A DNA stretch of 64,000 nt from a virus (IMGVR_UViG_3300028591_003737:32001-96000), one strand, 5' to 3'. Shown: positions 9,564 to 61,354, counted from the first letter of the stretch. Notes: generated by a model not told the origin, from the letters alone. Translations and numbers: made by a program.

Positions 9564-10045
9564 TTAATATTCTAATAGACCTTTAGAATAAATCCAACAC
9601 TGACCAGTTGCATATTCACAACCATTTGGAGTACGATGAGAAACAGTAAGACTTGCCGGAACATCAACCTCCACATAGTCTCCTTCATCTTTGAACTGAA
9701 AAATTTCTTCCTTATCAACAATAGAATGAAGCATAACTTCATCTGAATCATTGAATCCATTAAGCATTCTTTTTAGATCACCTACTGTCAAGGTTTTTGC
9801 AGGAAATACTTTATCCATAATGTTTATTTTAATTACATATCTTCAGGTGCATATTCATATTCATCACCAGCAGTATATTCATGATTCTTATCAACTATTC
9901 CAAATAACATTAAAACAGTTTCAGAACCTTCATAAAAAGCTTTCTCTATATCAGAAACAGTAAAAGTTGACTTTTCACAAAATAACTTAGCACTAAACTC
10001 ATTCCATGCATTGTGAATATTATTTGCAATATCTATATTCGTCAT
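9564..10045 (-). CDS. Two small hypothetical proteins (9564-9818, 9833-10045)
   Basis: Tandem ORFs downstream of the promoter at 10072-10099. Confidence 0.6.
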
Positions 10046-10071
10046 AATGTTTGTTTTTTAATTACATTATA

Positions 10072-10099
10072 AATATAGTAAATAGTTAAAAAAATTCAA
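10072..10099 (-). promoter_or_regulatory. Class I phage promoter TTGAA-N16-CTATATT
   Basis: Same bipartite motif recurs upstream of many operons. Confidence 0.7.
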
Positions 10100-10250
10100 T
10101 GAAATACAGTAGAAATTCAAATGTTTTTTCTATTTTTATATAAAGATATTATTTTATAGATTTGTAGAGAAGTATTTATGCTTCCCTTGAGATTTATAAC
10201 AGAATCGAATACATTTCTATGAAGTTTATAAATATATCCAATAAACTTTT

Positions 10251-11225
10251 ATGAATACTTTAAAAACTAAGTCAAATGATGACAAAAACTTTTCTAAATT
10301 AGCAGTTAACAAATCATTGTTAAAAGAGTACAAAACTTCTGATTGTACAAGAACCGTATATCTTAATGACGGTGATGAATTTCAAATTCAGTTATTTAAT
10401 CCTGAAACTACAGAAATTGGAGCAGAGATTTTTATTGATGGTGAACCACTATCTAATATCATTATCTTAAATCCAGGTGAAAGAATGTGGTTAGAGAGAT
10501 ATACTGATAAAGCAAAGAAATTCAAATTTAAGGTTTATACAGTAGATGGTGAATCTAAGGCAGTAGAAAAAGCAATTGCTCATAATGGAGAAATTGAAAT
10601 TAAGTTCTATAGAAAGCAGAAACCTACTATAATCAATCGTTATCATTATCCTGATTATATATATAGAGATATTACTGTAGAACCTTGGAAACCAAACATT
10701 TGGTATAACTATAACATTACATGTAGTGATGCAAATTCAGTTAATACAGTTGATTCAGGAATAACTAATTTTTCAGCAAATCTTGATTTAAATTCTGTAA
10801 ACTATTGTTCATGTGAACTTGGTGCTGCTACTGGTGTGTATGATGCAAGTGATGTAACAGCAAGTGCTTCAGCATCAAGCGCTACAGCCCTTGAATTTAC
10901 TCCAGAAAAAGCATCATTTAGTTGTGGTGAAACACATTATGAAGATGGTAGTTCATCTAGTTGGGCAGCTTATGATGGTGATGCTGATCCTAATTTAATT
11001 GAAACTGGTCGTGTTGCTGAAGGAAGTCATTCAAATCAGAAATTCCAGAATGTTGATATTGATCTTGAAATATTTGCATTTAGAACTGAAAAGTTTAAGA
11101 TTCTTCCTTATTCAAGAAAACCTTATACAGCAAATGATGCAAAGAAGATTTATTGTTCAAGTTGTGGACATAAATTAAATACAAAGTTTAAATATTGTCC
11201 ATATTGTGGTGCAGAAATCGATTAA
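10251..11225 (+). CDS. Phage protein with C-terminal double zinc ribbon
   Basis: N-terminal beta domain (EFQIQLFNP, WLERY), low-complexity linker, ETGRVAEG, CSSCG...CPYCG. Confidence 0.7.
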   Translation: MNTLKTKSNDDKNFSKLAVNKSLLKEYKTSDCTRTVYLNDGDEFQIQLFNPETTEIGAEIFIDGEPLSNIIILNPGERMWLERYTDKAKKFKFKVYTVDGESKAVEKAIAHNGEIEIKFYRKQKPTIINRYHYPDYIYRDITVEPWKPNIWYNYNITCSDANSVNTVDSGITNFSANLDLNSVNYCSCELGAATGVYDASDVTASASASSATALEFTPEKASFSCGETHYEDGSSSSWAAYDGDADPNLIETGRVAEGSHSNQKFQNVDIDLEIFAFRTEKFKILPYSRKPYTANDAKKIYCSSCGHKLNTKFKYCPYCGAEID

Positions 11226-11282
11226 AATTTAAATATAAAAGTTATTTTTACATAACTAACAAATAAATAATTATATATAGAA

Positions 11283-12374
11283 ATGAGAGAAGTTGATATT
11301 AATGATGTAGAAAAAAATCTTTCAGGTCAAATTCCAGAATTTGAAGGAGAAACAGTAGTTGAAGAAACTACTACTCCATCAAAACCTGAAAATGAAGCTA
11401 CTCAATTTCTTGGAACTAAATTAACTCATAAGATTGGTGGATATGGCGAAAGCGATAAAGAAGCCGATAAAGAAATGGTAGAAGAAAAGAAACTTACCAG
11501 AGTTGGCGAAAAAATTACTCAAAGTACTGAAATCAGAGATGGTTGGATGGATGTTGATAAGCGCTTACTTGGTGATAGAGCTATTTTCTATCCAGAAGAT
11601 TGGCAATTTAAGATTCGTCCTGCTACAGTAGAAGCTGTTAGAAACTGGTCAACTATTGATGATGAAAATCCTAATTCAGTTGATGATGTTTTTAATGAGA
11701 TTCTTAAATCTTGTTTAGCTATTGTAACACCTAATGGTCCACTTCCTTGGGGTAATATTCGTTCATGGGATAGATTCTTCTTCATTCTTCTTATAAGAGA
11801 ATATACATTTATTGATGGTGAAAAGAAAGTTGAATTTACTGAAGATTGTCCAAACTGTGATAATCCTGTAACATTTACTCTTAATTCTCAGAGTCTTATG
11901 TATGATATGCCTGATCCTGATGTAATGAAGTATTTCTCATCAGAAGAACAGAATTGGTTAATTGATCCTGAAGAATATGATGTAGAATGGCCAGAAAAGA
12001 TTGTTCTTTATCTTCCTACTCTTGAAAAGGATGCTAATATTAAAGCATGGCTTATTGATAGAGTACAGAATAAGAAAAAGGTTGATAATGTATTTGTTAA
12101 ATTCCTTCCTTGGCTTGCACCAAAGATTTCTAAGGATTTACAAATTGCTCAGCGTCAGATTAGAGAATATGAAGTTAAGTTTAAGAGTTGGGACACAGAA
12201 ATGTTCTCATTTATGGATGAAGTAATAAATAATATTACTGTTATGCCATCAACAAATTTAGTTCAAACATGTCCAACTTGTGGTGAGGAGGTAACCGCAG
12301 CTATTTCCTTTCAAGATGGAATCCGTTCTCTATTCAATATGGCAGGTGGACGTAAGAAATTTGGTAAAAAGTAA
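11283..12374 (+). CDS. Baseplate hub subunit, T4 gp26-like
   Basis: IRP...ILKSC...DRFFFILLIR...CPNC...LYLPT...CPTCG pattern; followed by a small gp51-like ORF. Confidence 0.6.
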   Translation: MREVDINDVEKNLSGQIPEFEGETVVEETTTPSKPENEATQFLGTKLTHKIGGYGESDKEADKEMVEEKKLTRVGEKITQSTEIRDGWMDVDKRLLGDRAIFYPEDWQFKIRPATVEAVRNWSTIDDENPNSVDDVFNEILKSCLAIVTPNGPLPWGNIRSWDRFFFILLIREYTFIDGEKKVEFTEDCPNCDNPVTFTLNSQSLMYDMPDPDVMKYFSSEEQNWLIDPEEYDVEWPEKIVLYLPTLEKDANIKAWLIDRVQNKKKVDNVFVKFLPWLAPKISKDLQIAQRQIREYEVKFKSWDTEMFSFMDEVINNITVMPSTNLVQTCPTCGEEVTAAISFQDGIRSLFNMAGGRKKFGKK

Positions 12375-33668: not shown

Positions 33669-34676
33669 TTAACAATGTGATTTATATGAATGATATCCTG
33701 TACAATCCCAATATCCATCTTCATCATCATTATCACAACCAGATTTTATTGGTTTTCTTTTAGAATAAAGTCCTGAAACATCAAGTGCGTCATTTCTAAT
33801 TTTATTCATTATTTTATTTAATTCAGATTCATCAACTGAATATTTATTTATATACCAAGTAAGTAAAAGAGCAAGAAGTACACTGTCATCTTTACTCTTC
33901 TGTAATTCTTTAATTATTTCAAGAAATGTTGGATTATATTTCTTATTTAATTCAGATATAAGTAAATTATTATCTTCTATCTTTGCAGCGATAAGACCAA
34001 CATTTTTAGTTATTCCAGTAAATAAATCCATATTATAATATTGTCTCTATATTTAATTTCTTTTCATATTCCTTAACATTCTTTATATGTGCTTCTAATA
34101 ATTTATCATGTAAAGCAAGAAATTTAGGATTAGTTTGTGTATAAGTTGGAAGTATAATCTTACCTTTAATTATATCTTTTTGAATATCATATAAATTAAA
34201 TTTATATTGTTGAAATAAAATTAAGGAAAAATCATACCATTTTGAATGGTCTATATAATGTAATTTATCACCTCTACAACAACACCAATTATACAGATAC
34301 TCACTTAGATCTGTAATCATATCTATTAATACATCTACTTCAGAAGTTTTATCCATAATTAGTTTACTGGAACCAATACCTCAACATTCATGTCATTTAA
34401 TATCTGTTTATTAATTGCTTTTGATATCTCATCTACATGAAAGTCAAGTACTTTCTTTGCTTGTTCCTCAATATTTTTAATCTGTCTTTTTGTAAATGGT
34501 TTTTTCTTCTGAAGATGTACACATCCACAACAGTCTTCATATTTATAAAAACCAGCTTCTACAAATCCATTAATTAAATCATCAGTATTACAAGTTAACC
34601 CATTAAACTTTCCATCTTTAACAGGTTTAGATTTCTTAAATAATATATCAAAAAATGTATTCATAATTAAACCCAA
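33669..34676 (-). CDS. Three hypothetical proteins (33669-34031, 34033-34356, 34359-34676)
   Basis: Tandem ORFs; each contains a small Cys cluster. Confidence 0.6.
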
Positions 34677-35554
34677 TGAGGATATATTTTTCCATTTTCA
34701 TGGATTACTCCAAAGAAATATGGTTTAGCAAATATCCATCTTGTACATATTTTTATAAAATCCCAAATATTTGCTTTCTTTAATTTACTTCTATAGAAAC
34801 AACTTCTTTTAATATAAAGATGACCATCAAAATTATCACCATATAATGACCATTTTTTAGCTCCTTTATATTCTGTCTTACAACCCCAAGCAAATGGAGA
34901 ATTCATCTTAATTCCAAGAGTTTTAGGAATATCTATATATAAATCATCTGCATCAAATAATTCACATATCTTTAAATTCTTAAAACCAAGACGATTAAAC
35001 ATCATTACATTATTTATGATATCATCTTTATTTTCAAAATATGGTTTAAAGATATTGATACTACCTAAAATCTTATCAGAACCACAATGTTCAAGAATTT
35101 CTTTATAAAATTCCTTTCTATCAAAATTACTTTTAGATTGTCTTATCATATCACTCATATTATCACTATAATATTGAAGTGATATTTGAATATTATCACA
35201 TTTATCTAGAATTTCAAAAAACTTATCTTTTTCTTTATAACAAATATTAGGTACACTTGTTATAACAAGAATTTTTAAATCAGTATTTTCTTTAATCCAA
35301 TTTACAAAATAAAGTAATTCATCAAGAAATATAAATGGTTCACCACCAGATATACATATATTTTTTACTTTGTCTTTATATTCATTAACAGTTTCAATTA
35401 TTTTATCTATTTCTGGTTTTTTAGTATTTACTCCTATATTTAATTTATCTATACAGAATTCACAATTATTAGGACATAATTTAGTAAAGTGAATCATAAG
35501 TTCACTTATTTTTGGTGAATGATCACATGTATTTATATTATATCTAATTTTCAT
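34667..35554 (-). CDS. Radical SAM protein
   Basis: CPNNCEFC (CxxxCxxC) and SGGEP. Confidence 0.9.
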   Translation of the reverse strand: MKIRYNINTCDHSPKISELMIHFTKLCPNNCEFCIDKLNIGVNTKKPEIDKIIETVNEYKDKVKNICISGGEPFIFLDELLYFVNWIKENTDLKILVITSVPNICYKEKDKFFEILDKCDNIQISLQYYSDNMSDMIRQSKSNFDRKEFYKEILEHCGSDKILGSINIFKPYFENKDDIINNVMMFNRLGFKNLKICELFDADDLYIDIPKTLGIKMNSPFAWGCKTEYKGAKKWSLYGDNFDGHLYIKRSCFYRSKLKKANIWDFIKICTRWIFAKPYFFGVIHENGKIYPHWV

Positions 35555-36515
35555 TTGAATAAGTGAAAGTCAATATATTGTCCAAAATACCATCTTAAAA
35601 ATTCATATTCTTTTTCTCCCCAATATGCAGATCCTTCTGGAGAATCCATCCATGAAAATGCAGATGATATTGTTTCTTTATCAAGAAGTCCAGAAATAAC
35701 TTCAATAACTTTACAATTAATTTCTGCGCTTATTTCAGTAGTAAGTTGAAGACTACCATCATCTAAACGATATTTATTAAGAATATCTTGTTGAATATTA
35801 TCTCTAAAATCTGTATACCATTTTCTAGTCTTTAACCATTCTTCAATTTCTTCAGGATATCGACCATTAATTTTATAATAATTTAAATTATATTTTTGTA
35901 TGAGATAAATTGTAATTGGTAATAAAACCATACAAATTAAAATTAATATTAATAATGTATTACTCATCTTTCTTATCTTTTATACCTTTAGCAATTTCCA
36001 AAATATAAAGTCTTAAATCATGATAACATTCTGGATATGAACCATATTTTTTAATAGCACCAAAAATAAAAGCAAGTGCTTCATCTGCAATACCAGGTCC
36101 ACAAAATTCTCTATCATTATTCCAATCTGGTTCAATAGTACCAATAACTCTTGTTTTAGGATCAAGAATTTCTTTATTATCCTCTGTCAAAAACGCTGTT
36201 AATTTTTTCATAATATTAATTTTTTATATAATCTTCTAAAATCATTGATTCAAATTTTTCAACAAATATTTTACATGTATCTTCATTTAATACATCTAAG
36301 GACAATTGATATGGGTCTCCAGATTTAATATATTGTCCTTCATCATTTTGTTTACATTCAGTACTTAAAAAGAAATATGAATTTTCTTTTTTTATAAATT
36401 CAACCATTACAAATTCACCATCTACATTTATAATGAATTTAACAAATGGTGAATTATCAATATAATTAATTAATTTTTCTTTATACATATTATTTACTCC
36501 ATTTAATATATCCAT
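35551..36515 (-). CDS. Three hypothetical proteins (35551-35967 membrane-anchored, 35960-36211 with MKKLTAFLTE leader, 36216-36515)
   Basis: Tandem coupled ORFs. Confidence 0.6.
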
Positions 36516-37116
36516 AAATACAATTCATAATCCAGAAAATGTATTGTACTATCATAAATATATTTCCAATATTTATCCAAAGAATAAGTGTAGCAATATC
36601 AACAATCAACCACATTATCCATTGTTCTCTATATCTAAACATCAACATAAATTGAGCAATAAATGCTGGTACTGTTGATATTGAGTCAAGAAATGGTCTA
36701 GGATCATTTGTTCTTAAAAGTATTATATATAGTAATATAGTACTTATAATAAATATACTACAACATAGTAACCAATCCTGCTTAGATAGTTTACGAGCAA
36801 TAACTTCTTTTTCCTCTTTATTATAATTCTTAATCCAAATAAAAAAAGCGATTGTTGTGGTAATTACATAAAATATATTTTCAACTAATTCGCCATAAAG
36901 ATGCTGTTGAAATATGATTACTATATAAGTAAACATTTGAATATAAGCAAATAAATAAAATGAAAGTTTCTTTTGAGAACAAAGAACCACATTTATTACT
37001 CCACTTAATCCACAAATAAATGAAAGTAAACTATCACCTGTAAATATATAACATATTATTTGAAGTAATACCCCAAATAACATAAATAACCAATCAAATG
37101 TTTTAATTTTACTCAT
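36490..37116 (-). CDS. pnuC: Pnu-family vitamin/nicotinamide riboside transporter
   Basis: About 7 TM helices; G....V.L...K, LYGE, PFLDS, AQFMLMFRYREQWIMW...D, NCIYGY.KW. Confidence 0.88.
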   Translation of the reverse strand: MSKIKTFDWLFMLFGVLLQIICYIFTGDSLLSFICGLSGVINVVLCSQKKLSFYLFAYIQMFTYIVIIFQQHLYGELVENIFYVITTTIAFFIWIKNYNKEEKEVIARKLSKQDWLLCCSIFIISTILLYIILLRTNDPRPFLDSISTVPAFIAQFMLMFRYREQWIMWLIVDIATLILWINIGNIFMIVQYIFWIMNCIYGYIKWSK

Positions 37117-37167
37117 AATATATCAAAACTATCGTAATAATCAATAATTCTTTGATATTTATCCATA

Positions 37168-37491
37168 TTATTTAAAATATTTTTCTTCAAATGGTCTTAC
37201 TTTATAAGAATTTCTCCATGCAAGTATTTCTTCTTTACTAATTTCTCCATTTTGATATTGAAATTCTTTTGCTAAATCTCTTACCGCTGCCTTAAGATAT
37301 TTTATATCTTCAACATTATCATTTGGATCTCCACTATTAGGACTCATTCCAATTCTTATATTATGAGGTATCATTTGATGGAATCTTTCTTCATAATCCC
37401 AAATAGTAATATGAACATCTCCATCATTTCCAATGACAACTGTCATTTCTTGATCTGGTCCATCTATTGATTTTAATTTAAAACTATTCAT
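37168..37491 (-). CDS. Hypothetical protein
   Basis: 107-aa ORF. Confidence 0.55.
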   Translation of the reverse strand: MNSFKLKSIDGPDQEMTVVIGNDGDVHITIWDYEERFHQMIPHNIRIGMSPNSGDPNDNVEDIKYLKAAVRDLAKEFQYQNGEISKEEILAWRNSYKVRPFEEKYFK

Positions 37492-37843
37492 ATCTTACTA
37501 CTTTAACAGGTATTCCTTTTTGTTTACATAAATCAATTGTATGTTTCGTTCCCTTTGATTTTCCATCCCAGAAACAAATAGCAGCAGAAGCAATATCTAC
37601 CATTTCTTTGTTTCTCCTATAGCCAGCACTTTTACCATATTTATCCCAATCTGCTGGATGAGAATCTATTTTATATCCTCTTTCTTTTGCATATTTCTCT
37701 CCAAGAGAATCAGCACCTCTTGCTGCACCAGATATAATTACTATTTCTGGATTATCTAAATTTGATAAATAGTAATCACATTTATTTTTTAATAATTCAT
37801 AATTATTAAAATCTCTACCACCAGCTATAATTACTTTAAACAT
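37484..37843 (-). CDS. SLOG-family (DUF2493/YspA-like) protein
   Basis: VIIAGGRDF, ISGAARGAD, PADW..YGKSAG..RN, FWDG.SKGT. Confidence 0.85.
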   Translation of the reverse strand: MFKVIIAGGRDFNNYELLKNKCDYYLSNLDNPEIVIISGAARGADSLGEKYAKERGYKIDSHPADWDKYGKSAGYRRNKEMVDIASAAICFWDGKSKGTKHTIDLCKQKGIPVKVVRYE

Positions 37844-37845
37844 AA

Positions 37846-38897
37846 TTAAATTTCATAAGGTCTACTATATAAATATCTTTCAGAATCATATCTTCCTTGA
37901 CGACGAAGTTCACGTACTTCTCTATTCCAAAGTTCTTCATTAGTCCAACCACCTTGAAGATATTTAATATCATAACATACTGGAGTAAATTTATTTACAC
38001 CATAATGTCCACCAAAATAACAAGTATTTCTATTAAAAAATGCACATTCTCCACAATATGCTGGTATTTCATTTGGATTTCTCATAATTTAATCTTGAAA
38101 ATGTTTTATTGTTCCTTCATACCAATCATCTGGTGTAGGTTCAAAATGAACTCCAATTGGTTTATCATAATTATCATTCTTTTCATCATCAGAATGATGA
38201 AAAATATTATAATCATAATCTGGTTGTTTATTACAACCATCATCACTAAAATGTTTCATATTTTTTTAATTATCTTTTATGTAATAATTAAAATCCTTTT
38301 AATCCTCTTAATCCTCTATAGTATTTACCATAGAATTCTTTACCTTTATCAAATTCAGAATGACCACATTTATCAATGTATTTATTTATATCTTTTTGAT
38401 ATTTTTCATAAACATCATTCATAAGTACAGATATATTTACTTGTTCAAAGAAATGTTTATTGTTATCGTAAAAGCTTTTCATACGGAGAGCATGGTCAAA
38501 CTGTTCTCCAATCATAGTTCCATCCATATTAGATGTTGATACATCAAAATATGATACACCATCTTGTAATGCAAGATCTTGAAGATGAAACTTAAAGAAA
38601 GTTTTCTTAAAATCTTCTAAATCTTTACACTCACAAAACTTTAATTCTTTCTTACTCATATTACAATATTTTATATGCTTCTGCTTCAAGTGCAGGATAT
38701 TTACTAAAAGCACCATGTCTTACTTGGAATTCAAAAGAATCAATAGAATCAGGATTAATGTTATTCTCCATCAATTCATTTTTCCATTTATAAATTTCTC
38801 TCTCCCAGTAATGCCTTTCATTTTCTGAGGTTGCTTTATTTCTAAGACTATAACAGTCTTTTAACATTTCTGCTACATTATAAAGTCTGTCTGCCAT
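37846..38897 (-). CDS. Four small hypothetical proteins (37846-38085, 38089-38259, 38288-38716, 38661-38897)
   Basis: Tandem ORFs; 38089-38259 (56 aa) was read by hand. Confidence 0.55.
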
Positions 38898-38917
38898 AAT
38901 TATTAAATTTTTTTAAT

Positions 38918-38976
38918 AATGTTCATTATTTTATTTATGTTCATTAATTTTGAACATTGATATTTTTGTGAACATT
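38918..38976. repeat. Symmetric four-box element ATGTTCA x2 / TGAACAT x2
   Basis: Boxes at 38919, 38937, 38951 and 38969 share one dyad centre at 38947. Confidence 0.7.
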
Positions 38977-40087
38977 ATCCTTCAATTAAACTATTGATAT
39001 AATTCTTTACTTCAATAAAGTTCTCAAGATAAGATCCATTCAAATAAGTTTTATTTACATCAGGATAAAACTCAGCAACAAGTTTCTGAAGTTTTTCAAA
39101 ATTCTTATTTCTTTCTTCCATCGAAGCTTGTTTCATATATCTTACTCCATCATTTACAAAATTCTTAGATGGAGGGAATATGAATATTCTATCCCATTTA
39201 TATTCATAAATTTTATTTAACTCTTTAGCTTTCTCATAAAGGCAATCATAATCTTCTTTAGAAAGATAAATATCATAATCCTCTACATAAGCAAGAGCAT
39301 ACATAAGAGTTACTGTATTATCAGTATCTGAAATAAATACACCATTCTTTGATTTTCTTCTTTCAGTATCACAATAATCTAACTGTCCATTTAAGAAAGC
39401 ATCAAAATCGGCATATGTTAAATCTTTATCAGTTATATTGTCTGCCTTCATATAATCTCTACCATATTCTCTTGCATAAGGTATATCAAAATAATTAGCA
39501 ATATCTCTTACCAGTGTAGACTTACCTTCACTTGCAGTACCAATAACAAGAATATTCTTACAAAGATATGGTTTAAATGGAGCTGTAATTTTATTCCAAT
39601 ACTTAACAGGATTTTTTCTAATCTGTGTACCAGAAACTTGATTTACTTTATCAATAAGAACTACATTACAAGGATAATTATTTCCTTCAATATAAATACT
39701 TTCAAGGCATTTCTTATAAAATGGTTCAGCTACATACCAAGTTATTTTATAGTCTTCTGTTGTAACACTAATTTCATCCTTATTAATATATTCCATTACC
39801 TTTTTAGTCCAGATTTCCCAGTTATGCGTAGACATACTTTCATCAAGACCAAGCTCAGTATCATTAATCTTTCTAACTCTAATCTGCTCATCATATCTGA
39901 AGAAATCATAAATTAAAGTATATCTTTCATCAAGATTAAGATTAATTTCCCAACCACGAGGTTCATTATCATAACCGCATACAATAACATAACAGATGTC
40001 ATTTTCTTTCTTAGCTCTCATAATGACATCCATATGTCCTTGGTGAAGTGGGCAATAACCACCAAAACAAATACCTATATTTTTCAT
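38975..40087 (-). CDS. nadR: NadR-like bifunctional NMN adenylyltransferase / ribosylnicotinamide kinase (no HTH)
   Basis: PLHQGH (HxGH), VSGTQIR, P-loop GTASEGKSTL, EYGR, DTD, DGVR. Confidence 0.88.
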   Translation of the reverse strand: MKNIGICFGGYCPLHQGHMDVIMRAKKENDICYVIVCGYDNEPRGWEINLNLDERYTLIYDFFRYDEQIRVRKINDTELGLDESMSTHNWEIWTKKVMEYINKDEISVTTEDYKITWYVAEPFYKKCLESIYIEGNNYPCNVVLIDKVNQVSGTQIRKNPVKYWNKITAPFKPYLCKNILVIGTASEGKSTLVRDIANYFDIPYAREYGRDYMKADNITDKDLTYADFDAFLNGQLDYCDTERRKSKNGVFISDTDNTVTLMYALAYVEDYDIYLSKEDYDCLYEKAKELNKIYEYKWDRIFIFPPSKNFVNDGVRYMKQASMEERNKNFEKLQKLVAEFYPDVNKTYLNGSYLENFIEVKNYINSLIEG

Positions 40088-40338
40088 ATTACAAATGTAG
40101 TCTTTTTAATACATTCTTCCATTTCTTCTCTAGTCCAAATCTTTGGTTGATCTAACTCATATATCTTAATTCCAAGACAATCATGACCAGCAATCTTAAG
40201 AGTTTTTCTAAGAAAACGTTCAAGTTCTTCATTATTTTCAGAACTATCAACTACAAAATCAAAACCTAAAAATTGAGGTCCACCACACCTAATATCTTCC
40301 CAATCATTTTGTTCGCAATCAATTACAACTCTTTTCAT
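40084..40338 (-). CDS. Hypothetical protein
   Basis: 84-aa ORF coupled to nadR. Confidence 0.55.
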   Translation of the reverse strand: MKRVVIDCEQNDWEDIRCGGPQFLGFDFVVDSSENNEELERFLRKTLKIAGHDCLGIKIYELDQPKIWTREEMEECIKKTTFVI

Positions 40339-40339
40339 A

Positions 40340-40987
40340 TTAAATAAATTTAATTCTTAATGAAACAATTTCTCCTTTACTATTCTTTCCAGCATAAAGA
40401 TTATAACTACCATCACCAAATCCACTAAAACTAATAACACATTTATTATCAAGTGCTATAGCATCTCTTCTTTCTTGACCAGAATATTCCCAGTGGCCTT
40501 CTCTTGGATTACTAATAGTTCCATCTTCATTAAAGGTCCAATCATCTACCCAATGAGGTTCTATAAAATCTTTACCATTAATATCAAAATCATATCTTAA
40601 ATCAAACTGTCTTTCATACCACTCATCACTTTCGGGGTAATCATCAATATATTTACCTTCTTCAAGAGTATGATATTTTTCAAAGTATTCTTTATCATAA
40701 ATACCTGCAGCACCACTATCTACTCCAATATCAATATTTTTATCAAGAAGTTTAGTAGGAAAATTTTTAATATATTTTTCATGTGCTATCCAAAGATCAG
40801 TCTCACGAATACCACCAAATCCACCAGGACCAAAATCTTTCTTATATACAAATCCATAATATTTTCCTGGTTTAAGACCTTCAACAAAGGCTTGACACCA
40901 AGTGCCTACTCCATAACAAGGATCACTTACATAAACTTTATCACTTAATTCTATTGTACCTAATTCTTGTTTATATTTTTTACTCAT
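40340..40987 (-). CDS. DUF4241-like protein
   Basis: VSDPCY, GVDSG, SGFGDGSY motifs. Confidence 0.7.
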   Translation of the reverse strand: MSKKYKQELGTIELSDKVYVSDPCYGVGTWCQAFVEGLKPGKYYGFVYKKDFGPGGFGGIRETDLWIAHEKYIKNFPTKLLDKNIDIGVDSGAAGIYDKEYFEKYHTLEEGKYIDDYPESDEWYERQFDLRYDFDINGKDFIEPHWVDDWTFNEDGTISNPREGHWEYSGQERRDAIALDNKCVISFSGFGDGSYNLYAGKNSKGEIVSLRIKFI

Positions 40988-40992
40988 ATCTA

Positions 40993-41356
40993 TTATATTT
41001 GGTTTTTTATATAATTATATTCATATTGTATTAATTCTTCTTTATGTTCTTCTATATATTGTTCTACAAAGTTACGTATTTTGTCTTCATTAAATAAATT
41101 ATCAAAATTATTATTTGATTTAATAAAATCATTATTATTTGGTTCAATAAAAACTGTATCTTTTTTTAGTATTAACATCCCATTTTAATTTATTAATTTC
41201 ATTTGCAATTTCTTTAGAAACAACTATATAATTTGCTTTACCTCTTTTACTTCTATTATTAATTTCATTAGCATGTTTAAACATTATATTAATAGATTCA
41301 GAAATTATCTTTTCTTCTGGATCTATAAATTGAGTATCTTTTTTAAGTTTTAACAT
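40993..41356 (-). CDS. Two small related hypothetical proteins
   Basis: Similar N-termini MLILKKDTVFIEP and MLKLKKDTQFIDP. Confidence 0.55.
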
Positions 41357-41372
41357 AATTAAAATTATTTAG

Positions 41373-41407
41373 AAGTATATAGAGGAACATTCAACCTCTA
41401 TATACTT
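41373..41407 (-). terminator. Stem-loop after the TonB receptor gene
   Basis: AAGTATATAGAGG-N9-CCTCTATATACTT. Confidence 0.65.
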
Positions 41408-41413
41408 AATATT

Positions 41414-43486
41414 TTAGAAATAGAATTTAAGATCTGCAAAGAAATTAGTACCAGCTTCTCTGAACCAAAGAAGTTCTGTAGCTCCTTCTGCTGCATTATA
41501 ATAATTTACTCTATTAAGTAGATTATTTACTCTAAGACCAAATTCAACATTCTTATATCTATAGTTTCCATAGAAATTAAATGTAAGATAATAAGGAATC
41601 TCATACTTATTATTCTGATCAAGATACATCTTTGAATGATATAAATTATTTAGACCAACCTTAAAATTATTTCCTTTATAATAAATATCATTATTAAGAG
41701 TAAATGCAGGAGTAAGAATATGATACTTATTTGTAAAGTTTTCAGAATTTACTTTATTCTTGCTAAGTGAAGTATTAAGTGCATAATGAATTCCATTCCA
41801 AATATTCCAATCAAGACTTACTTCAACACCCATTCTATATGAATTAGTTGCAGTATCATGAAGAGGAAGACCATTCAAACCATATTGTCCATTAAGAATA
41901 CGCTCATTCTTGAAGTACATGTAATAAAGATTTACATTAGCTTCAATTCTATCTGATGTAACTACATAACCAGTTTCAACATCATATGAACGCTCAGCTT
42001 TATTAGTTGCAAGTTCATTAAGTTGACCAGTAGCTAAATACGCAATTCTGAGATCTTCATTTCCACCAAACATATCAGTTCTTGTAGGCTCACGAGAAAC
42101 CTCAGAATATCTTACATAGAACTTATTATAATTATTAAGATCAAAATCAACATTTAATCCATAGTTTATAAAGTTCCAATCAGTACCATATTTCTTTTTA
42201 CCAAAGGACCAAAGTGGATTCATATTATCAGCATAAGAAAAATCTACATGTCTATACTGAACATTTCCACCAAATGTAAACTTATAAAGCTTATAAGTTG
42301 CTGAAATAAAAGCATTAGCATCAAACTTATTACCAGTATTATCATAATATTCAGAAGGATCAACATTTACAAAATGAGAACTTAGTTTATCATTCATAAA
42401 ATGTTCTCTCTGATACTTATAAACATTTGCACCAGCAGTAAGTGTTACAGGTCCAAGATAAAATTTTCCAGCTAAATTACCTCCATAAAGATAATGTGTA
42501 AGCCCATAAGTATAAAGAATACCAGTAGCTCCCCATGTAGCATCAGCCATTCTAGTCATATAATTATCAAGGTCGAAATTATACCAACCATTCTGATACT
42601 GGAGGTAAGCAGATGCACTTAGAAGAACATTATTAGATAGCCAGCCCTTATATTGAATCTTATTAATACTCTGGAACCATTCATCATCTTCTGACTTAAG
42701 ATTACCATTTGCACGAGGATTAACAGTAAGTTCATTAAGAGTATTACCTAACCAACCTTGACCATTACGATGACGACCATTTAAAGAAATAAAATCAATA
42801 CTATGTTTAGGATTAAAGAAATATCCATACTTAATAGTAAATGCCTGAGAGTTATTGAATCCATAATCCTTAAAACCATCAGTCTGCTGCTGAGTAGCCT
42901 TTACATGAACTGCATTATGATTTCCAATAAGACCAGAATTATAAACTATACTTGTCTTATAAGTATTAAATGAACCACCACCTACATAACCATAACTTTC
43001 AGTATCTTTAAGTAAGTCAATAGATTCAAGATTAATACTACCACCACTAGATGCAGTACCATTATTTGTACTAGAAGTACCACGTTCAACCTTTAAAGTA
43101 TGAAGTGAAGACATAAGGTCTGGAGAATTAGCGAAATAAGTACCATAATCTTCAGCTTCATTCCAAGGCATACCATCAAGAGTAACATTGATACGAGTCT
43201 GATCAAGACCACGAATACGGAAATATCCATAACCAAATTCAGTACCATTATCATTCATACTGAAAATACCAGGCATCTTACGGAATACATGAGAAGGTTC
43301 CTGACCATGATTCTCAGATACAAGAGACTCATGATTTACAAGAGACCCAACATTAACTGTATTACGATAAAATGAAACAACTGACACTGAATCAATACTA
43401 TAAACATTTGTAGTGTCAACATTCTGTCCAAAGACAGAACCCATCATAAGAAAGATGGTAAGAATAAAAATTAAAATTTTCTTCAT
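41414..43486 (-). CDS. TonB-dependent outer-membrane receptor
   Basis: Signal peptide; plug motif FRIRGLDQTRINVTLDGMP.N and VERG....GGSINL; beta-barrel with VNNLLN; terminal Phe. Confidence 0.92.
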   Translation of the reverse strand: MKKILIFILTIFLMMGSVFGQNVDTTNVYSIDSVSVVSFYRNTVNVGSLVNHESLVSENHGQEPSHVFRKMPGIFSMNDNGTEFGYGYFRIRGLDQTRINVTLDGMPWNEAEDYGTYFANSPDLMSSLHTLKVERGTSSTNNGTASSGGSINLESIDLLKDTESYGYVGGGSFNTYKTSIVYNSGLIGNHNAVHVKATQQQTDGFKDYGFNNSQAFTIKYGYFFNPKHSIDFISLNGRHRNGQGWLGNTLNELTVNPRANGNLKSEDDEWFQSINKIQYKGWLSNNVLLSASAYLQYQNGWYNFDLDNYMTRMADATWGATGILYTYGLTHYLYGGNLAGKFYLGPVTLTAGANVYKYQREHFMNDKLSSHFVNVDPSEYYDNTGNKFDANAFISATYKLYKFTFGGNVQYRHVDFSYADNMNPLWSFGKKKYGTDWNFINYGLNVDFDLNNYNKFYVRYSEVSREPTRTDMFGGNEDLRIAYLATGQLNELATNKAERSYDVETGYVVTSDRIEANVNLYYMYFKNERILNGQYGLNGLPLHDTATNSYRMGVEVSLDWNIWNGIHYALNTSLSKNKVNSENFTNKYHILTPAFTLNNDIYYKGNNFKVGLNNLYHSKMYLDQNNKYEIPYYLTFNFYGNYRYKNVEFGLRVNNLLNRVNYYNAAEGATELLWFREAGTNFFADLKFYF

Positions 43487-43507
43487 TATTTATTTTGTTT
43501 TAAAAGG

Positions 43508-44507
43508 TTAAATATTTAAACAAAGTGTTGACTCTGAAACACATTTACCATCAACATAAAGTGCTAAAGCATATCTAGTATTACCTATATCTGTTCTTTT
43601 TGCTTTAAAATCAACTTTAACATGATTTCTCAAAAAATTTGTAAGTATTTCAGGATTATCAGTCAAATATTTTTCAATATAAGTATTTATATTTTCTTGA
43701 GTAATGATTTGTTTTTTCTGTTTTTTACTTTTTCTAGATTTATGAGTAGTAAGTTTTTTGCTTACCTTTTTAGGATAAACATTTTCATCATTAACAGATA
43801 TATTATCTATACTAACATTATTCATTTTCCCAGTTCTATATAATTCATTAATTATATTATCAATAAAACTACTTATACTATCAATACTATTATCTACCAT
43901 ATATTATCATCTTATATTAATTTAATATAGAACTATTCATTCAAAGAATTTCCATCTGGAGAACAACAATATAAATCCTCAGATATAAGTGGTTTATATT
44001 TTCCTATATGTTTTTTATCTACAGGAAGCCAAGTATCTTTAGTATCTGTTTCTGTCCATTTTGGATTCTTTCGTATAACTTGACTACAATTAATTGCTAT
44101 TTCCATTCCTTCTTCGCGAGATACAAATCTACCTTTTGAAGTATAGAATCCCATAGCATTTTGCTCTTGAACAAGTTCATCTCCAAAGCGTAGAAAGATA
44201 TCATGATGACGATATCCTAATTCAATGTTTAGAATATCATTATTAACATGATATGGTTTACTTTCTACTTTTCTTGGTTCTTTTCTTTTCCAAGCAGCAC
44301 AAAGGATATATTCTTTTGTATTATCAATCATAAATTATTTTCATTAGGAGTTTGTCTTTCACATAAACACCAACAATAATGATAACCATTAGATATACAT
44401 GCAGAAATTTGAATAATTTTCCAACCTTCTGTATTTAATTTTTCAACTTTATTATCAACTTCATATTGATAATCTCCATCTATTTTAATTATTTTCTGTT
44501 CAATCAT
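43508..44507 (-). CDS. Three hypothetical proteins (43508-43900, 43933-44331, 44328-44507)
   Basis: Tandem ORFs; 43933-44331 has the RHHD...GFYTSKGRFVSREE motif seen in phage proteins. Confidence 0.55.
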
Positions 44508-44509
44508 AA

Positions 44510-45409
44510 TTAGTCCTCAACAATCTTTCCATTCTCAACAAGGAAATCATATAAATCTTTAACTTTAATCTTCCATTGTGCTTTATATTCACAACCACCA
44601 TAGTAGTCATGATCTCCCCACTCGTCAAGTTGAATATATTTCTTCTTCAACTCTTTGAATTTAAGATATGTAATGTCTGGATATTCATTCTGAAGAATTT
44701 CATCAAGTTCTTCAAAGTCAGATTCAGGTTCAGCAGAACATGTACCTTCATTACCCCAACAATTTGCCCAAGTTCCACCAGTGGTCCAAGAATCAGAAGT
44801 TATATATTCTTTTTCCTGACCATTAAAATCATATCCATATTTGAATTTGAACTTATCCCAAGATGTTGCCTTTTCAATAGAATGGTTATACCACCAGAAA
44901 TCAATGTCAGGAAATTCCTTCTTAAGTTCATCAATACTAACATTAATATTTGCATTCATAATTGTAATTGCAGAATCTATTTCTCTGCGACCTTTATCAT
45001 TATGAAGGCAAAGTTCTCTATTAGGAATCCAAAAGTCTATGATTACCTGATATTTAGCATTTTTATCTGCATAATAATATTCACTATCATTCTTTACGGC
45101 CTTGAAAATATATTTCAATGCATTAATGATAGTCTCATTATTAAGGAATAATCCATCAAGAATAATTTCATCGTATTTAGAATAACTGTCATAATGACTA
45201 GCTTCTTCAAGAACTTCTTCAATAGTATTGATATGCTCTTGTTCAAGATAGTAATCACAATTTACCAGCTTGACACTATTATATCTAATACCATTTCTAA
45301 TGTTTCTTTTTTCAGTTTCATAATCAGACATATACTTTCTTGCCCAAGTAGTTTTACCACTACCTGGAAGACCTACAAGAACGTGAATACTTTTAACAAA
45401 TTCGCTCAT
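44510..45409 (-). CDS. P-loop kinase (polynucleotide kinase-like) with extra C-terminal domain
   Basis: GLPGSGKTT, IILDG, C...D..R lid. Confidence 0.75.
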   Translation of the reverse strand: MSEFVKSIHVLVGLPGSGKTTWARKYMSDYETEKRNIRNGIRYNSVKLVNCDYYLEQEHINTIEEVLEEASHYDSYSKYDEIILDGLFLNNETIINALKYIFKAVKNDSEYYYADKNAKYQVIIDFWIPNRELCLHNDKGRREIDSAITIMNANINVSIDELKKEFPDIDFWWYNHSIEKATSWDKFKFKYGYDFNGQEKEYITSDSWTTGGTWANCWGNEGTCSAEPESDFEELDEILQNEYPDITYLKFKELKKKYIQLDEWGDHDYYGGCEYKAQWKIKVKDLYDFLVENGKIVED

Positions 45410-45434
45410 AATATTTATATTTTAATCCAACTAT

Positions 45435-45468
45435 AATATAGAAAAAGGTTTGAAAAATTCAAACCTTC
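45435..45468 (-). promoter_or_regulatory. Class I promoter overlapped by a hairpin
   Basis: TTTGAA-N16-CTATATT within the AAGGTTTGAA/TTCAAACCTT inverted repeat. Confidence 0.7.
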
Positions 45469-46070
45469 TTAAATAAATTCTCAAATAAATTGTCTCTTGT
45501 AAATATCTGCCTTATATTACACCCAATATAGTTTCCTATAACTACAATTATATAATATATAGTTGGTTTCCATAGACCATAATTTAAAAACAAATTATCT
45601 TCTATTCCAAAATAGAATGCATCAGCAATAGAGTGATTAAAACCACATATAACAAATAAAGGAATACCAATAAGAAGAGGAATTACTGAATTATCTCTTT
45701 TAGATAAAAAGACTGAAATATCAACAATACATCCACACATAATTGCTTTTGATAATGTGACATACCATGGTGACATAAGTTTATTAAATATAATTGGAGA
45801 AAGATTATTTCCAATAGCACCATCATAAGTAAAGTGCATTAACCATGCTCCAAGTGAAGCTCCACCAATATTTAGGGCTAAAACTTCCATTTTAGTCCAA
45901 AACTTCTCTTCTGTACCAGCAATACCTGTATATAGTGGAGTTTGTAATTTGACTACACAAATAATACCAAAAGCAAATAGAAATGCTCCAATTATTCCAC
46001 CAACTTTAAGAAATGCATATCCACCGATAGCAATTAAAAATCCAGCAAAAATTTTTTTAAGAATATTCAT
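45459..46070 (-). CDS. Formate/nitrite transporter (FNT) family channel
   Basis: AGFLIAIG, LFAFG, LYTG, NIGG, KAIMCG, FVICGFNHSIAD, GNYIG. Confidence 0.82.
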   Translation of the reverse strand: MNILKKIFAGFLIAIGGYAFLKVGGIIGAFLFAFGIICVVKLQTPLYTGIAGTEEKFWTKMEVLALNIGGASLGAWLMHFTYDGAIGNNLSPIIFNKLMSPWYVTLSKAIMCGCIVDISVFLSKRDNSVIPLLIGIPLFVICGFNHSIADAFYFGIEDNLFLNYGLWKPTIYYIIVVIGNYIGCNIRQIFTRDNLFENLFKKV

Positions 46071-46241: not shown

Positions 46242-46595
46242 TTAATCTACTACTTTTTCTCTTTTAAATATATACATAATAGCATAAGGTTTACCATCAC
46301 CGCCATAACTAGTTAATGCACTAAAACTTACTAATTCCCATTTAGCAACTTTATTTAAAAATGTTAAAATATCTTTAAATTTTTTAAAATCAAGTTTTTC
46401 ATAATATTTATCAAAATGATCTTCAATAGTTAAAAATCCATTATTTATATATGTTTTAATATCATTAAAATTATATTGATATGGTGTTTGTGGATGTTTC
46501 ATTTCAAGAGAAATAAAACCGCATATTTGCTCATAATCTATAATTATTTGATTATATTCATAATAACTATCTGATGTTGATTTTTTGTCTTTCAT
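46242..46595 (-). CDS. Hypothetical protein (WELVS small family)
   Basis: LNKVAKWELVSF...YIFKRE. Confidence 0.55.
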   Translation of the reverse strand: MKDKKSTSDSYYEYNQIIIDYEQICGFISLEMKHPQTPYQYNFNDIKTYINNGFLTIEDHFDKYYEKLDFKKFKDILTFLNKVAKWELVSFSALTSYGGDGKPYAIMYIFKREKVVD

Positions 46596-47083
46596 TAGAA
46601 TAAATTTAATTGTTCTATCTTCTTTACTTCTTTTTCTGGAAGAGGACCTTTATCTCTAAGATAAGTTAATCTTCCACAGAATTCTGATGTAGTCAACACG
46701 GTTTCATTTATTTTATTCTTTCCTATAGAATGAGTTAATGTACTTCCTTTAGTTGCTTCAAGAGCTTTTCTAAATCCTTCATTCTTATAAAGTTGATTAT
46801 ATGCTCTATTCAAAAGATTCTGATATTCATCACTATCTCTTTTATACGTATCTCCAAGCCAATAAAGTTCTTGTTTTTGAAACCACTTCTTTTTCTTTCC
46901 TTTAAACTTTGCCGCTTTACCTACAAGAGTACATACATATTTCTGCATTTCAACAGATTCAAACTTCAATGACTGAAGAAATCCTTCCATTGAATTACAT
47001 TGTACTCCATCAATCTCAAATGGGTGTGGAGCAAAATTACTTAAGGTTCCAGCAGGATAACCATTACCACTTCCTATATCCAT
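46595..47083 (-). CDS. Phage NADAR, T4 gp30.3-like
   Basis: LSNFAPHPF.IDG....SMEGFLQSLK, LYW.G, ALEAT, LTHSIG, VLT..EF. Confidence 0.8.
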   Translation of the reverse strand: MDIGSGNGYPAGTLSNFAPHPFEIDGVQCNSMEGFLQSLKFESVEMQKYVCTLVGKAAKFKGKKKKWFQKQELYWLGDTYKRDSDEYQNLLNRAYNQLYKNEGFRKALEATKGSTLTHSIGKNKINETVLTTSEFCGRLTYLRDKGPLPEKEVKKIEQLNLF

Positions 47084-48974: not shown

Positions 48975-49946
48975 TTAAATAAGGGATTCATTTACTTTCT
49001 TTACAGCTTCCACACTTTCAAGAAGTCTTTCTTTCACAGATTCCTCAAATTCCTTATCGATATAAACCTTAGGTGCATTATAAGCATCTTCAGTAAGCTG
49101 AATCAAAGAGCCGATGCAGCAACCATATTCCTCACGCCAGACAGATGCAGTAAACATCTCATCATTACCTTCATAAATAGAAGCACACATATCAGCAATT
49201 GCCTGAGCAGGAGCTTCCCATGCAGAAGTACCAAGCAATCCAGTAAGAATTGCGCCTCCTCTCATAGTACGGTCAACTACATCTTCAATTTCTTCTGTAT
49301 TAAGATAATTAGTAAGAGGATTACCATAAACAGTAACTTCACTTACAATCGGAATCATAGTTTTATCACCATGACCGCCAATAACATATGCATTCTGTAC
49401 ATCATCAGGAACAAATCCAGCATCAGGCATTTTTTCATTAAGCTTTGCCCAAATAGTATACTTGAAACGTGCACTGTCAAGAGATCCACCAAGACCGATT
49501 ACCTTACTGTCAATATCCCACATAGGTCCATAATTCTTAATAAGATAATCACGTACCATCTGAGTCATCGTATCCATTGGATTGGAAACAACAACATATG
49601 TTGCATCAGGAGAATACTTAGTAGCCTGATCAAGAACGGAAGTCATAATCTTAGAATTAACACCAACAAGCTCTTCACGAGTCATACCAGGCTTCCTAGG
49701 CATACCAGAAGTAATAACAATAATATCTGACTTAGCAGTTTTTGTATAGTCATTAGTAGTACCAATAACTACAGTATTGTTATTCCACTTCATCATAAGA
49801 GACTGCATAATATCCATCGCCTTACCTTCGGCAACACCCTCCTTGATATCAAGAAGAACAACTTTATCAAAAATACCAAGTTCAGCAATTTTCATTGCAG
49901 CAGTTGCACCTACATTACCAGCACCAATAATAGAAACTTTACTCAT
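48975..49946 (-). CDS. mdh: Malate dehydrogenase (LDH-like)
   Basis: IIGAGNVG, GKAMD, GMPRKPGMTREEL (MDH Arg), VSNPMD, LDSARF, GGHGD. Confidence 0.92.
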   Translation of the reverse strand: MSKVSIIGAGNVGATAAMKIAELGIFDKVVLLDIKEGVAEGKAMDIMQSLMMKWNNNTVVIGTTNDYTKTAKSDIIVITSGMPRKPGMTREELVGVNSKIMTSVLDQATKYSPDATYVVVSNPMDTMTQMVRDYLIKNYGPMWDIDSKVIGLGGSLDSARFKYTIWAKLNEKMPDAGFVPDDVQNAYVIGGHGDKTMIPIVSEVTVYGNPLTNYLNTEEIEDVVDRTMRGGAILTGLLGTSAWEAPAQAIADMCASIYEGNDEMFTASVWREEYGCCIGSLIQLTEDAYNAPKVYIDKEFEESVKERLLESVEAVKKVNESLI

Positions 49947-60484: not shown

Positions 60485-61354
60485 TTAAATTTGAAAAACA
60501 CTTCCCATAGGGAAACCACGACGATTAATTACATTATAAAGTTTCTTAGTAACTTCTTTTCTTACTTCAGGAGTGTTCTCAGCATTTGCAAATTCATCAA
60601 GAACTTTATCAACTTCATGATTAATAGCTCTTCTTTCAGCAACTATCTCATTAAGTATTTCTTGTTCTTCTGAATATTTTGTCTGAGGAGGAGCAATAGG
60701 AGCAGTTTTTATTTCCTCAACAAAATGAGGAGTACCTTTAATAACAGTAGGATCTTCTTCTACTTGGACAACTCCAGGTTCTTCTACTGTTTTAACTTCT
60801 GGTTCCTCATCTACAAGAGGAGCAGATTCAGCAACTACTTCAATAGGATCAATATTCTCAGAAACAAGTTCTTCTGGATTAGGAAGTACAGGATCTTCTA
60901 CAATAGGTTCTCTATGGTCATAGATAGTTACATCAAGTCCTTCACACTGATTAAGATACTTTTCCATAATAGGAATTACTTCATCAGGATTAAGTCCACC
61001 ATTTGAACAACCAAGAAGAGGGAATGCAACAGAAGTTATACCCTTCTCTGACCAAATTTCTACAAATTTCTTAAGTCCTTCTTCAATATATTCAATTTTA
61101 GAAGGATTCTTCCAATCAATCTTAGTAGGGAAATTTAAAATCCACTTACCATCTTCTGCTTTATAAATCCAAAGAACACCAGGTTTAAAGACTCCTTTAT
61201 CACAGAAACTTTTATATTTGTCAAACATTGCTGGGTATCTGTTTTTAAACTCAAGAGCGAGTCCTTTACCCATAACACCTACACAGTTAATTGTATTTAC
61301 TAGAGTTTGTGCAGATGAATCAAAAATAGTTTTACCACGTTCAATTTTAACCAT
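60485..61354 (-). CDS. Macrodomain protein (DarG/TARG1-like) with acidic Pro-rich tail
   Basis: NTINCVGVMGKGLA, NFPTK.DW, FPLLGCSNGGL. Confidence 0.88.
   Translation of the reverse strand: MVKIERGKTIFDSSAQTLVNTINCVGVMGKGLALEFKNRYPAMFDKYKSFCDKGVFKPGVLWIYKAEDGKWILNFPTKIDWKNPSKIEYIEEGLKKFVEIWSEKGITSVAFPLLGCSNGGLNPDEVIPIMEKYLNQCEGLDVTIYDHREPIVEDPVLPNPEELVSENIDPIEVVAESAPLVDEEPEVKTVEEPGVVQVEEDPTVIKGTPHFVEEIKTAPIAPPQTKYSEEQEILNEIVAERRAINHEVDKVLDEFANAENTPEVRKEVTKKLYNVINRRGFPMGSVFQI

Follow-up and report, generated by a model that had tools for sequence, protein, structure and literature searches.

The DNA analysed here, referred to as the window, is a stretch of 64,000 nucleotides (IMGVR_UViG_3300028591_003737:32001-96000) that covers bases 32001-96000 of a 169.6-kb linear virus record in IMG/VR, with a CheckV completeness of 60%. 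Its minus strand encodes a TonB-dependent receptor, a PnuC-family channel and a NadR enzyme that has no helix-turn-helix (HTH) domain. It is quite probable that these three proteins form a three-component route for the import and conversion of NAD precursors, acquired in one piece by an ancestor of the Lak-like megaphages from a receptor-pnuC-nadR operon of Bacteroidota. The identity and integrity of the genes, their catalytic motifs, their orthology with the bacterial operon, their co-inheritance and the purifying selection acting on them are established directly. The original prediction, made from the sequence alone, had placed an intact receptor, an HTH-less NadR, a SLOG protein and a Pnu transporter on one strand within 7 kb. 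Pfam, NCBIfam and structural modelling confirm all of this: the four genes are intact, share the minus-strand orientation and lie where it had put them, and the span 36490-43486 runs exactly from the stop of pnuC to the start of the receptor gene. Its proposal that the receptor, PnuC and NadR act as a unit in NAD-precursor import and conversion is supported by bacterial orthology, co-inheritance in phages and purifying selection.

The inner two steps of such a route, carried out by PnuC and NadR, have already been published as an anti-defence pathway, to which the receptor most likely adds an outer-membrane step. In this pathway, NARP3, phage TrudiRoth encodes a PnuC-like transporter (Bas30_87) and an HTH-less NadR-like enzyme (Bas30_86); experiments showed that nicotinamide riboside (NR) is imported, NAD+ is rebuilt and Sir2-HerA is overcome (Yan et al., Sci Adv 2026, PMC13464706). 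The statement in the original prediction that the described NAD reconstitution pathways import no precursor is therefore outdated. The NARP3 paper makes no mention of TonB, the outer membrane, Bacteroidota or megaphages (PMC13464706).

The rarity of phage TonB receptors had also been overstated. One has been noted in Lak phages (10.1101/356790), and the homologue of Mar_Mega_1/LR745206 has been labelled SusC, with a suggested role in carbohydrate uptake (Michniewski et al., PMC9723777). An October 2026 preprint on the outer-membrane proteins of huge phages reports genes for the transport of nicotinamide mononucleotide (NMN) near 22-stranded barrels, suggests a role in superinfection exclusion and finds a Lak phage receptor to be transcribed in a metatranscriptome (bioRxiv 10.64898/2026.10.24.761521). 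None of these three sources connects the receptor with NadR or NAD salvage.

A receptor-pnuC-nadR operon in Bacteroidota

In which genetic context do the bacterial relatives of the phage receptor occur? A search of 5.8 billion proteins with the receptor found 1482 relatives at E<1e-10. Forty more distant representatives were aligned, and 80 loci were taken from species-representative bacterial genomes, picked on receptor similarity alone (30-34% identity) and blind to nadR. One of the 80, L005, on a contig from a 'Clostridia' metagenome-assembled genome (MAG), is a phage relative and was set aside; nearly all of the remaining 79 are from Bacteroidota. The nadR gene lies immediately 3' of the receptor gene in 70 of the 79 loci, and pnuC stands between the two in 44 of the 79. 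When the neighbouring open reading frames (ORFs) were clustered, nadR and pnuC were the sole conserved partners, save for an NrtR-like regulator on the 5' side in 16 loci; no periplasmic nucleotidase was among the conserved neighbours. The operon was seen in Chitinophaga, Hymenobacter, Chryseobacterium, Zobellia, Flammeovirga, Dysgonomonas, Prevotella and others.

Since its nearest bacterial homologues adjoin nadR and pnuC in this way, the phage receptor belongs to the operon-heading group and is, as judged from sequence, an orthologue of the Bacteroidota receptors at the head of receptor-pnuC-nadR operons. No description of such an operon, in bacteria or in phages, was found in the searchable literature. 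Co-occurrence in 70 of the 79 bacterial loci and in 48 of 53 phage loci, all picked by receptor, puts the grouping of the trio far beyond chance, and the assignment of the receptor, PnuC and NadR to one predicted functional unit of NAD-precursor uptake and conversion is well supported.

The bacterial operon and the phage module share the three gene families, the orthologous group of the receptor and the HTH-less form of NadR. By contrast, their layouts differ. The Bacteroidota operon is compact, has the order receptor-pnuC-nadR and sometimes stands behind an NrtR-like regulator, whereas in Lak-like phages the order is receptor-nadR-pnuC, there is no regulator and a radical SAM neighbour has been added; in the window, ten ORFs have been inserted as well. 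The phage module was probably derived from the Bacteroidota operon.

Two side observations were made on these loci. The NrtR-like protein, a Nudix regulator of NAD metabolism encoded directly 5' of the operon (at 2798-3496 in L009, and in 15 other loci), matches NF050029 at 146 bits, below the cut-off. In addition, four loci binned as Clostridia (L005), Thalassovita (L009), Bdellovibrionales (L050) and Staskawiczbacteria (L056) carry a receptor of the Bacteroidota or phage type, and these MAG bins look contaminated; the receptor of L005 is 75% identical to that of the window and clearly belongs to a phage relative.

Co-inheritance and selection in phages

The record is that of a phage resembling Lak phages: among its products are a homologue of the major head protein, a tail-spike-like protein, gp30.3, IF3 and ClpX, and the closest GenBank relatives for these genes are found in Prevotella Lak megaphages. 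The host is probably a Prevotella-like member of Bacteroidota. The G+C content of the window is ~27%, and between 26 and 61 kb the minus strand holds nearly all genes. Lak phages recode the stop codon TAG; reading TAG as glutamine alters no ORF of the module.

The best 120 of the 1482 receptor relatives are 66-100% identical and several of them lie on contigs of 325-474 kb, which points to a large phage clade. The co-occurrence of the trio in relatives, on which the original prediction had staked its case, is borne out: among 53 IMG/VR phage loci with the receptor, nadR is found within 10 kb in 48 and pnuC within 10 kb in 41, and most loci without one or the other nearby end at contig edges. 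A 473-kb relative (L002) has the gene order of the window, including a malate/lactate dehydrogenase-like gene and a formate/nitrite-family channel on the 5' side. In the published huge-phage genomes LR745206 and LR756502, receptor, pnuC and nadR are contiguous; in Lak-A1, the receptor gene is followed 5 kb 3', on the same strand, by nadR overlapping pnuC; nadR and pnuC are likewise adjacent or overlapping in relatives L085-L094, and in more distant Lak-like loci the three genes lie within ~4 kb.

Further NAD genes accompany the receptor in some of the 53 loci, namely pncB in nine, nadE in eight and pncA in seven. A complete NAD island is found in the 735-kb phage LR756501 (8854-17327), with the order pncB-x-nadE-receptor-x-pnuC-nadR-pncA; its products are nicotinate phosphoribosyltransferase, NAD synthase, the receptor, PnuC, NadR and an isochorismatase-type nicotinamidase. 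About nine IMG/VR loci hold comparable sets that include pncB, nadE and pncA.

Have the three genes travelled together? The 22 Lak-like loci, including the window, form one clade with a support of 100 both in the receptor tree (FastTree; for a subset also IQ-TREE under a mixture model) and in the NadR tree. In the PnuC tree, the same 22 loci form a clade with one extra row, again with a support of 100. This pattern fits a single ancestral capture, after which the trio would have been kept together as receptor identity fell to 41%. In pairwise comparison with close relatives, dN/dS is 0.15-0.30 for the receptor, 0.13-0.25 for NadR and 0.15-0.17 for PnuC, values at which all three genes are judged to be under purifying selection. 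A separate case is L102 (IMGVR_UViG_3300022654_000841, 10001-11929), where the receptor is cut to its first 271 residues and is followed by pnuC, with no nadR, which looks like decay of the module in this lineage.

The receptor as a transporter

At its N-terminus the receptor carries a Sec signal peptide (MKK, hydrophobic core, VFG|Q), and its last residue is Phe. The public IMG gene call (P0005, 677 amino acids) starts 13 codons later, at Met14, and would drop the signal peptide; alignment with relatives favours the longer form that starts at 43486, the disputed stretch being 43448-43486. At the position of the TonB box the window has DSVSVVS, where aligned relatives carry DEVTVTS or QEVVVT, that is, (D/Q)EV(T/V)V(T). 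An AlphaFold2 model built from the 40-sequence alignment (pLDDT 85.8, pTM 0.84) has a plug within a ~22-strand barrel. In Foldseek, this model matches solved TonB-dependent transporters with E values down to 6e-34, among them PqqU/YncD, FhuA, FecA and BtuB. The top match is PqqU/YncD, the transporter of pyrroloquinoline quinone (PQQ), with TM scores of 0.79/0.83 and 16% identity; to deduce the substrate from this match was rejected, the identity being only 16%. Signal peptide, TonB box, plug, 22-strand barrel and C-terminal aromatic residue, all features by which a TonB-dependent transporter is recognised, are thus present. The protein is proposed to import a pyridine nucleoside or nucleotide across the outer membrane.

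Might the receptor instead remodel the outer membrane of the infected cell, masking or displacing the receptors of superinfecting phages or serving as a decoy, while PnuC and NadR form an ordinary NARP3-type pair? Receptor interference has been proposed for huge-phage outer-membrane proteins, with lambda Lom cited, and OmpA- and OmpX-like proteins are likewise encoded by Lak phages (bioRxiv 10.64898/2026.10.24.761521). The receptor gene is also separated from nadR by 1.3-5 kb in the window and Lak-A1, with unrelated ORFs between. However, the receptor is orthologous to the heads of bacterial pnuC-nadR operons, it directly adjoins pnuC or nadR in most phage loci, and the three gene trees are concordant. 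Moreover, the parts that face the periplasm, the plug and the TonB box, are the best conserved, and a surface mask has no need of them. Against close relatives the plug is 90-92% identical (omega 0.11-0.17) and the barrel 69-75% (omega 0.22-0.33). Strongest constraint on the plug is to be expected of a gated transporter and not of a mask, so this pattern and the kept TonB-box-like motif fit transport rather than surface display. Remodelling of the outer membrane is therefore considered unlikely.

NadR, PnuC and the nature of the substrate

NadR matches NF005988 over profile positions 63-407 of 411, and the start of this match at position 63 identifies it as a form without the HTH. According to Pfam and NCBIfam, it consists of an N-terminal NMN adenylyltransferase domain and a C-terminal ribosylnicotinamide kinase domain. 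All the catalytic motifs are there, namely HxGH (H15, H18), SxTxxR (S152, T154, R157), Walker A GxxxxGK[ST] (G183-K189), a DTD Walker B and a DGxR lid; they are invariant in 22 of 22 Lak-like copies and kept in nearly all of 69 bacterial copies. The best solved relative is Lactococcus lactis NadR (6gye, 6.5e-52), to which both domains align, and Haemophilus NadR (1lw7) aligns too. PnuC, for its part, matches the Neisseria mucosa PnuC structure 4QTN at 1.3e-29 with the WxxW motif retained, and is proposed to be an NR permease.

How close is this pair to NARP3? The resemblance extends to both components, a phage-encoded PnuC-family protein (recognised by PF04973, TIGR01528 and 4QTN) and a predicted bifunctional, HTH-less NR kinase/NMN adenylyltransferase with both active-site motif sets intact, and the conversion of external NR to NAD+ is proposed for the window as well. 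By contrast, NARP3 is a two-gene operon of Enterobacteriaceae phages, whereas the trio of the window adds a co-inherited TonB-dependent receptor, belongs to phages of Bacteroidota hosts and is not contiguous. With the end of nadR at 38975 and the start of pnuC at 37116, these two do not form an adjacent two-gene operon. The NadR of the window scores 180 bits against bacterial NadR 6gye and 59 bits against 9x6f, which we take to be Bas30_86. Because it is so much nearer to bacterial NadR, the window genes are, by this comparison, a capture independent of NARP3.

Several observations weigh against the import of NAD precursors by this trio. The NR contacts of the Neisseria PnuC (Q99/Q171/N189/Y217) correspond to T87/Q155/D173/W195 (chain numbering) in the PnuC of the window, where only one of the four is kept; specificity for NR thus rests on gene context and not on pocket residues. 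Bacterial receptor-linked PnuCs likewise differ at these sites (T/S, T, D and F), and Asp at the N189 position is common to 41 of 42 of them. Bas30_87 also carries a different, reduced set of NR contacts (PMC13464706). NadR scores 206 bits against TIGR01526, under the curated cut-off of 341. In the window the trio is interrupted by ten ORFs, four between receptor and nadR and six between nadR and pnuC. No gene for TonB/ExbBD, pncB, nadE or pncA was found in the 170-kb record, which is itself a fragment.

It could be asked whether the receptor and the Pnu channel import some other micronutrient, such as thiamine (as in the PnuT type), iron or a siderophore, or a carbohydrate, with the closeness of NadR being incidental. 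In Bacteroides, thiamine is taken up by a TonB receptor and PnuT under the control of a thiamine pyrophosphate (TPP) riboswitch and is trapped by phosphorylation, and the pairing of a TonB receptor with PnuT for thiamine is general knowledge for Bacteroidota. Shared with the route proposed for the window are a small TonB-dependent receptor, a Pnu-family channel, a cationic vitamin and phosphorylation trapping. The unusual pocket of PnuC relative to 4QTN, the published labels (iron-complex receptor, a KEGG label used for Lak, and SusC for LR745206) and the best structural match, a cofactor (PQQ) transporter at only 16% identity, also lend themselves to such a reading. However, no TPP riboswitch, other riboswitch or other RNA family was matched in an Rfam scan of 34000-46000 at E values up to 1, and no thiamine enzyme is found among the neighbouring genes; the partner enzyme is NadR and not a thiamine pyrophosphokinase. 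A SusC function is opposed by the length of 690 amino acids (SusC has ~1000), by the absence of an N-terminal extension and by the lack of a SusD partner. No Pfam match to the SusD family was found among the neighbouring ORFs searched, and in LR745206 the receptor is followed by pnuC and nadR. The conserved partners in bacteria and phages alike (70/79 and 48/53 loci) are nadR and pnuC, and in some loci the NrtR-like regulator, pncB, nadE and pncA join the cluster. Import of another micronutrient is accordingly regarded as rather improbable, somewhat more so than a role in remodelling the outer membrane.

That the trio is a mere passenger, a captured host operon decaying with no role in infection, is very improbable: the inserted ORFs of the window and the truncated receptor and missing nadR of L102 would suit it, but all three genes keep their full length and their motifs throughout a clade whose receptors fall to 41% identity, dN/dS is 0.13-0.30 and the Lak receptor is transcribed (bioRxiv 10.64898/2026.10.24.761521).

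Proposed working of the module

How would an NAD-precursor route of this kind operate? The substrate, the reliance on host TonB and the benefit to the phage are what we infer from the evidence above. The receptor would be exported by host Sec, inserted into the outer membrane by the β-barrel assembly machinery (BAM) and energised by host TonB-ExbBD. From the gut lumen it would carry a pyridine nucleoside or nucleotide to the periplasm, NR being the likeliest and NMN or NAD alternatives. NR would then diffuse across the inner membrane through PnuC, the kinase domain of NadR would trap it as NMN, and the adenylyltransferase domain would convert NMN to NAD+. The phage may benefit from NAD+ refilled after a SIR2/TIR-type drain, as in NARP3, from a supply for LigA and dehydrogenases, such as the malate/lactate dehydrogenase-like enzyme, in a long infection, or from both. 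The NAD-dependent ligase that this NAD+ was originally predicted to feed is encoded in the window as a LigA-like protein (Table 1). Later insertions of small genes in the lineage of the window would have spread the module over 7 kb.

Haemophilus influenzae takes up NAD by way of the OmpP2 porin, periplasmic NadN and e(P4), PnuC and NadR, the last making NMN and then NAD+ from NR. The route proposed here likewise spans two membranes: a pyridine nucleotide or nucleoside enters the periplasm, PnuC lets NR through, and NadR produces NMN and from it NAD+. It differs in that Haemophilus uses a passive porin and periplasmic hydrolases, whereas the module has a predicted energised TonB-dependent transporter and no linked periplasmic nucleotidase. 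KVP40-type salvage and NARP2 (NadV with an NMN adenylyltransferase/Nudix protein) are also phage-encoded means of rebuilding NAD+. However, they start from intracellular nicotinamide and phosphoribosyl pyrophosphate, and no NadV/PncB-type gene was found in the 170-kb record.

Gene layout and neighbouring genes

The positions of the module genes and of other genes of interest are collected in Table 1.

Table 1. Genes of the module and its surroundings, with positions counted from the first nucleotide of the window.
Feature	Position	Strand	Evidence
TonB-dependent receptor, 690 amino acids	41414-43486	-	Pfam Plug 6.4e-10 and TonB_dep_Rec_b-barrel 1.1e-16
DUF4241 protein, 215 amino acids, between receptor and nadR	40340-40987	-	PF14025 1.7e-10
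HTH-less bifunctional NadR, 370 amino acids	38975-40087	-	CTP_transf_like and AAA_28; NF005988
YAcAr-type SLOG protein, 119 amino acids, between nadR and pnuC	37484-37843	-	PF10686 1.6e-16; phrog_289
PnuC-family inner-membrane channel, 208 amino acids	36490-37116	-	PF04973 8.2e-41; TIGR01528 137 bits, cut-off 42
Radical SAM protein, 295 amino acids, 3' of pnuC	34667-35554	-	Pfam Radical_SAM and Fer4_12
NAD-dependent DNA ligase, LigA-like, 630 amino acids	17847-19739	-	PF01653 above cut-off; TIGR00575 1.3e-42
70-amino-acid ORF just 3' of receptor	41144-41356	-	weak phrog_138 match (5.7e-5), to part of the major head protein family
Short formate/nitrite-family channel, 5' of module	45459-46070	-	
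gp30.3/NADAR-type protein	46595-47083	-	PF08010 9e-55
Malate/lactate dehydrogenase-like protein, 5' of module	48975-49946	-	NF004863 2.6e-76, below cut-off
DarG-like macrodomain protein	60485-61354	-	NF048014 7.9e-54, below cut-off

Which of the intervening genes belong to the module? The YAcAr-type SLOG gene, which had been counted as a part of it, occurs in just three of 136 loci (L002, L005 and L102), and DUF4241 only in L002 among the loci compared. Both were rejected as module members because they are restricted to the nearest relatives, and the DUF4241 gene is, on this distribution, a lineage-specific insertion and not core. The small ORFs within the module are confined to the nearest two or three relatives; eight of them have no informative family in Pfam or PHROGs. 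The radical SAM gene is found 3' of pnuC in 11 of 21 other Lak-clade loci and is not among the conserved neighbours of the bacterial operon; its product matches no NCBIfam family at or above that family's cut-off.

The largest gap in the module is 202 bp (38086-38287); within it, on the gene strand, lies a terminator-like hairpin (38239-38221). Because of this hairpin, nadR and pnuC may be on separate transcripts in the window. Four terminator-like hairpins were seen where 1.3 were expected. A sigma-70 promoter scan gave 62 sites against 67 expected and is uninformative in such AT-rich DNA.

Other genes in the same run touch on NAD. The malate/lactate dehydrogenase-like gene and the formate/nitrite-family channel, both kept in L002, may constitute a second NAD-linked pair for redox and export. 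The gp30.3/NADAR-type and DarG-like proteins are candidate erasers of ADP-ribosylation; these two genes indicate only a region rich in functions related to NAD and ADP-ribose.

Implications

We put forward as a serious but tentative possibility that the receptor represents an uncharacterised family of TonB-dependent transporters by which Bacteroidota take up vitamin-B3 ribosides or nucleotides, and that giant gut phages captured it together with pnuC-nadR. The phages would thereby have gained a self-contained, two-membrane means of rebuilding NAD+, the first counter-defence or auxiliary pathway with an energised outer-membrane importer installed by a phage. An added outer-membrane step would suit hosts whose outer membrane passively admits few small nutrients. 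If this proposal is true, NARP3-type rebuilding of NAD+ would be widened from enterobacterial phages to gut megaphages, and the labels 'iron complex receptor' and 'SusC' for the receptor of Lak and other huge phages would be corrected. It would also offer a testable alternative to the superinfection exclusion proposed for huge-phage outer-membrane proteins, and NAD precursors would become the substrate class of a widespread, unstudied family of Bacteroidota TonB-dependent transporters.

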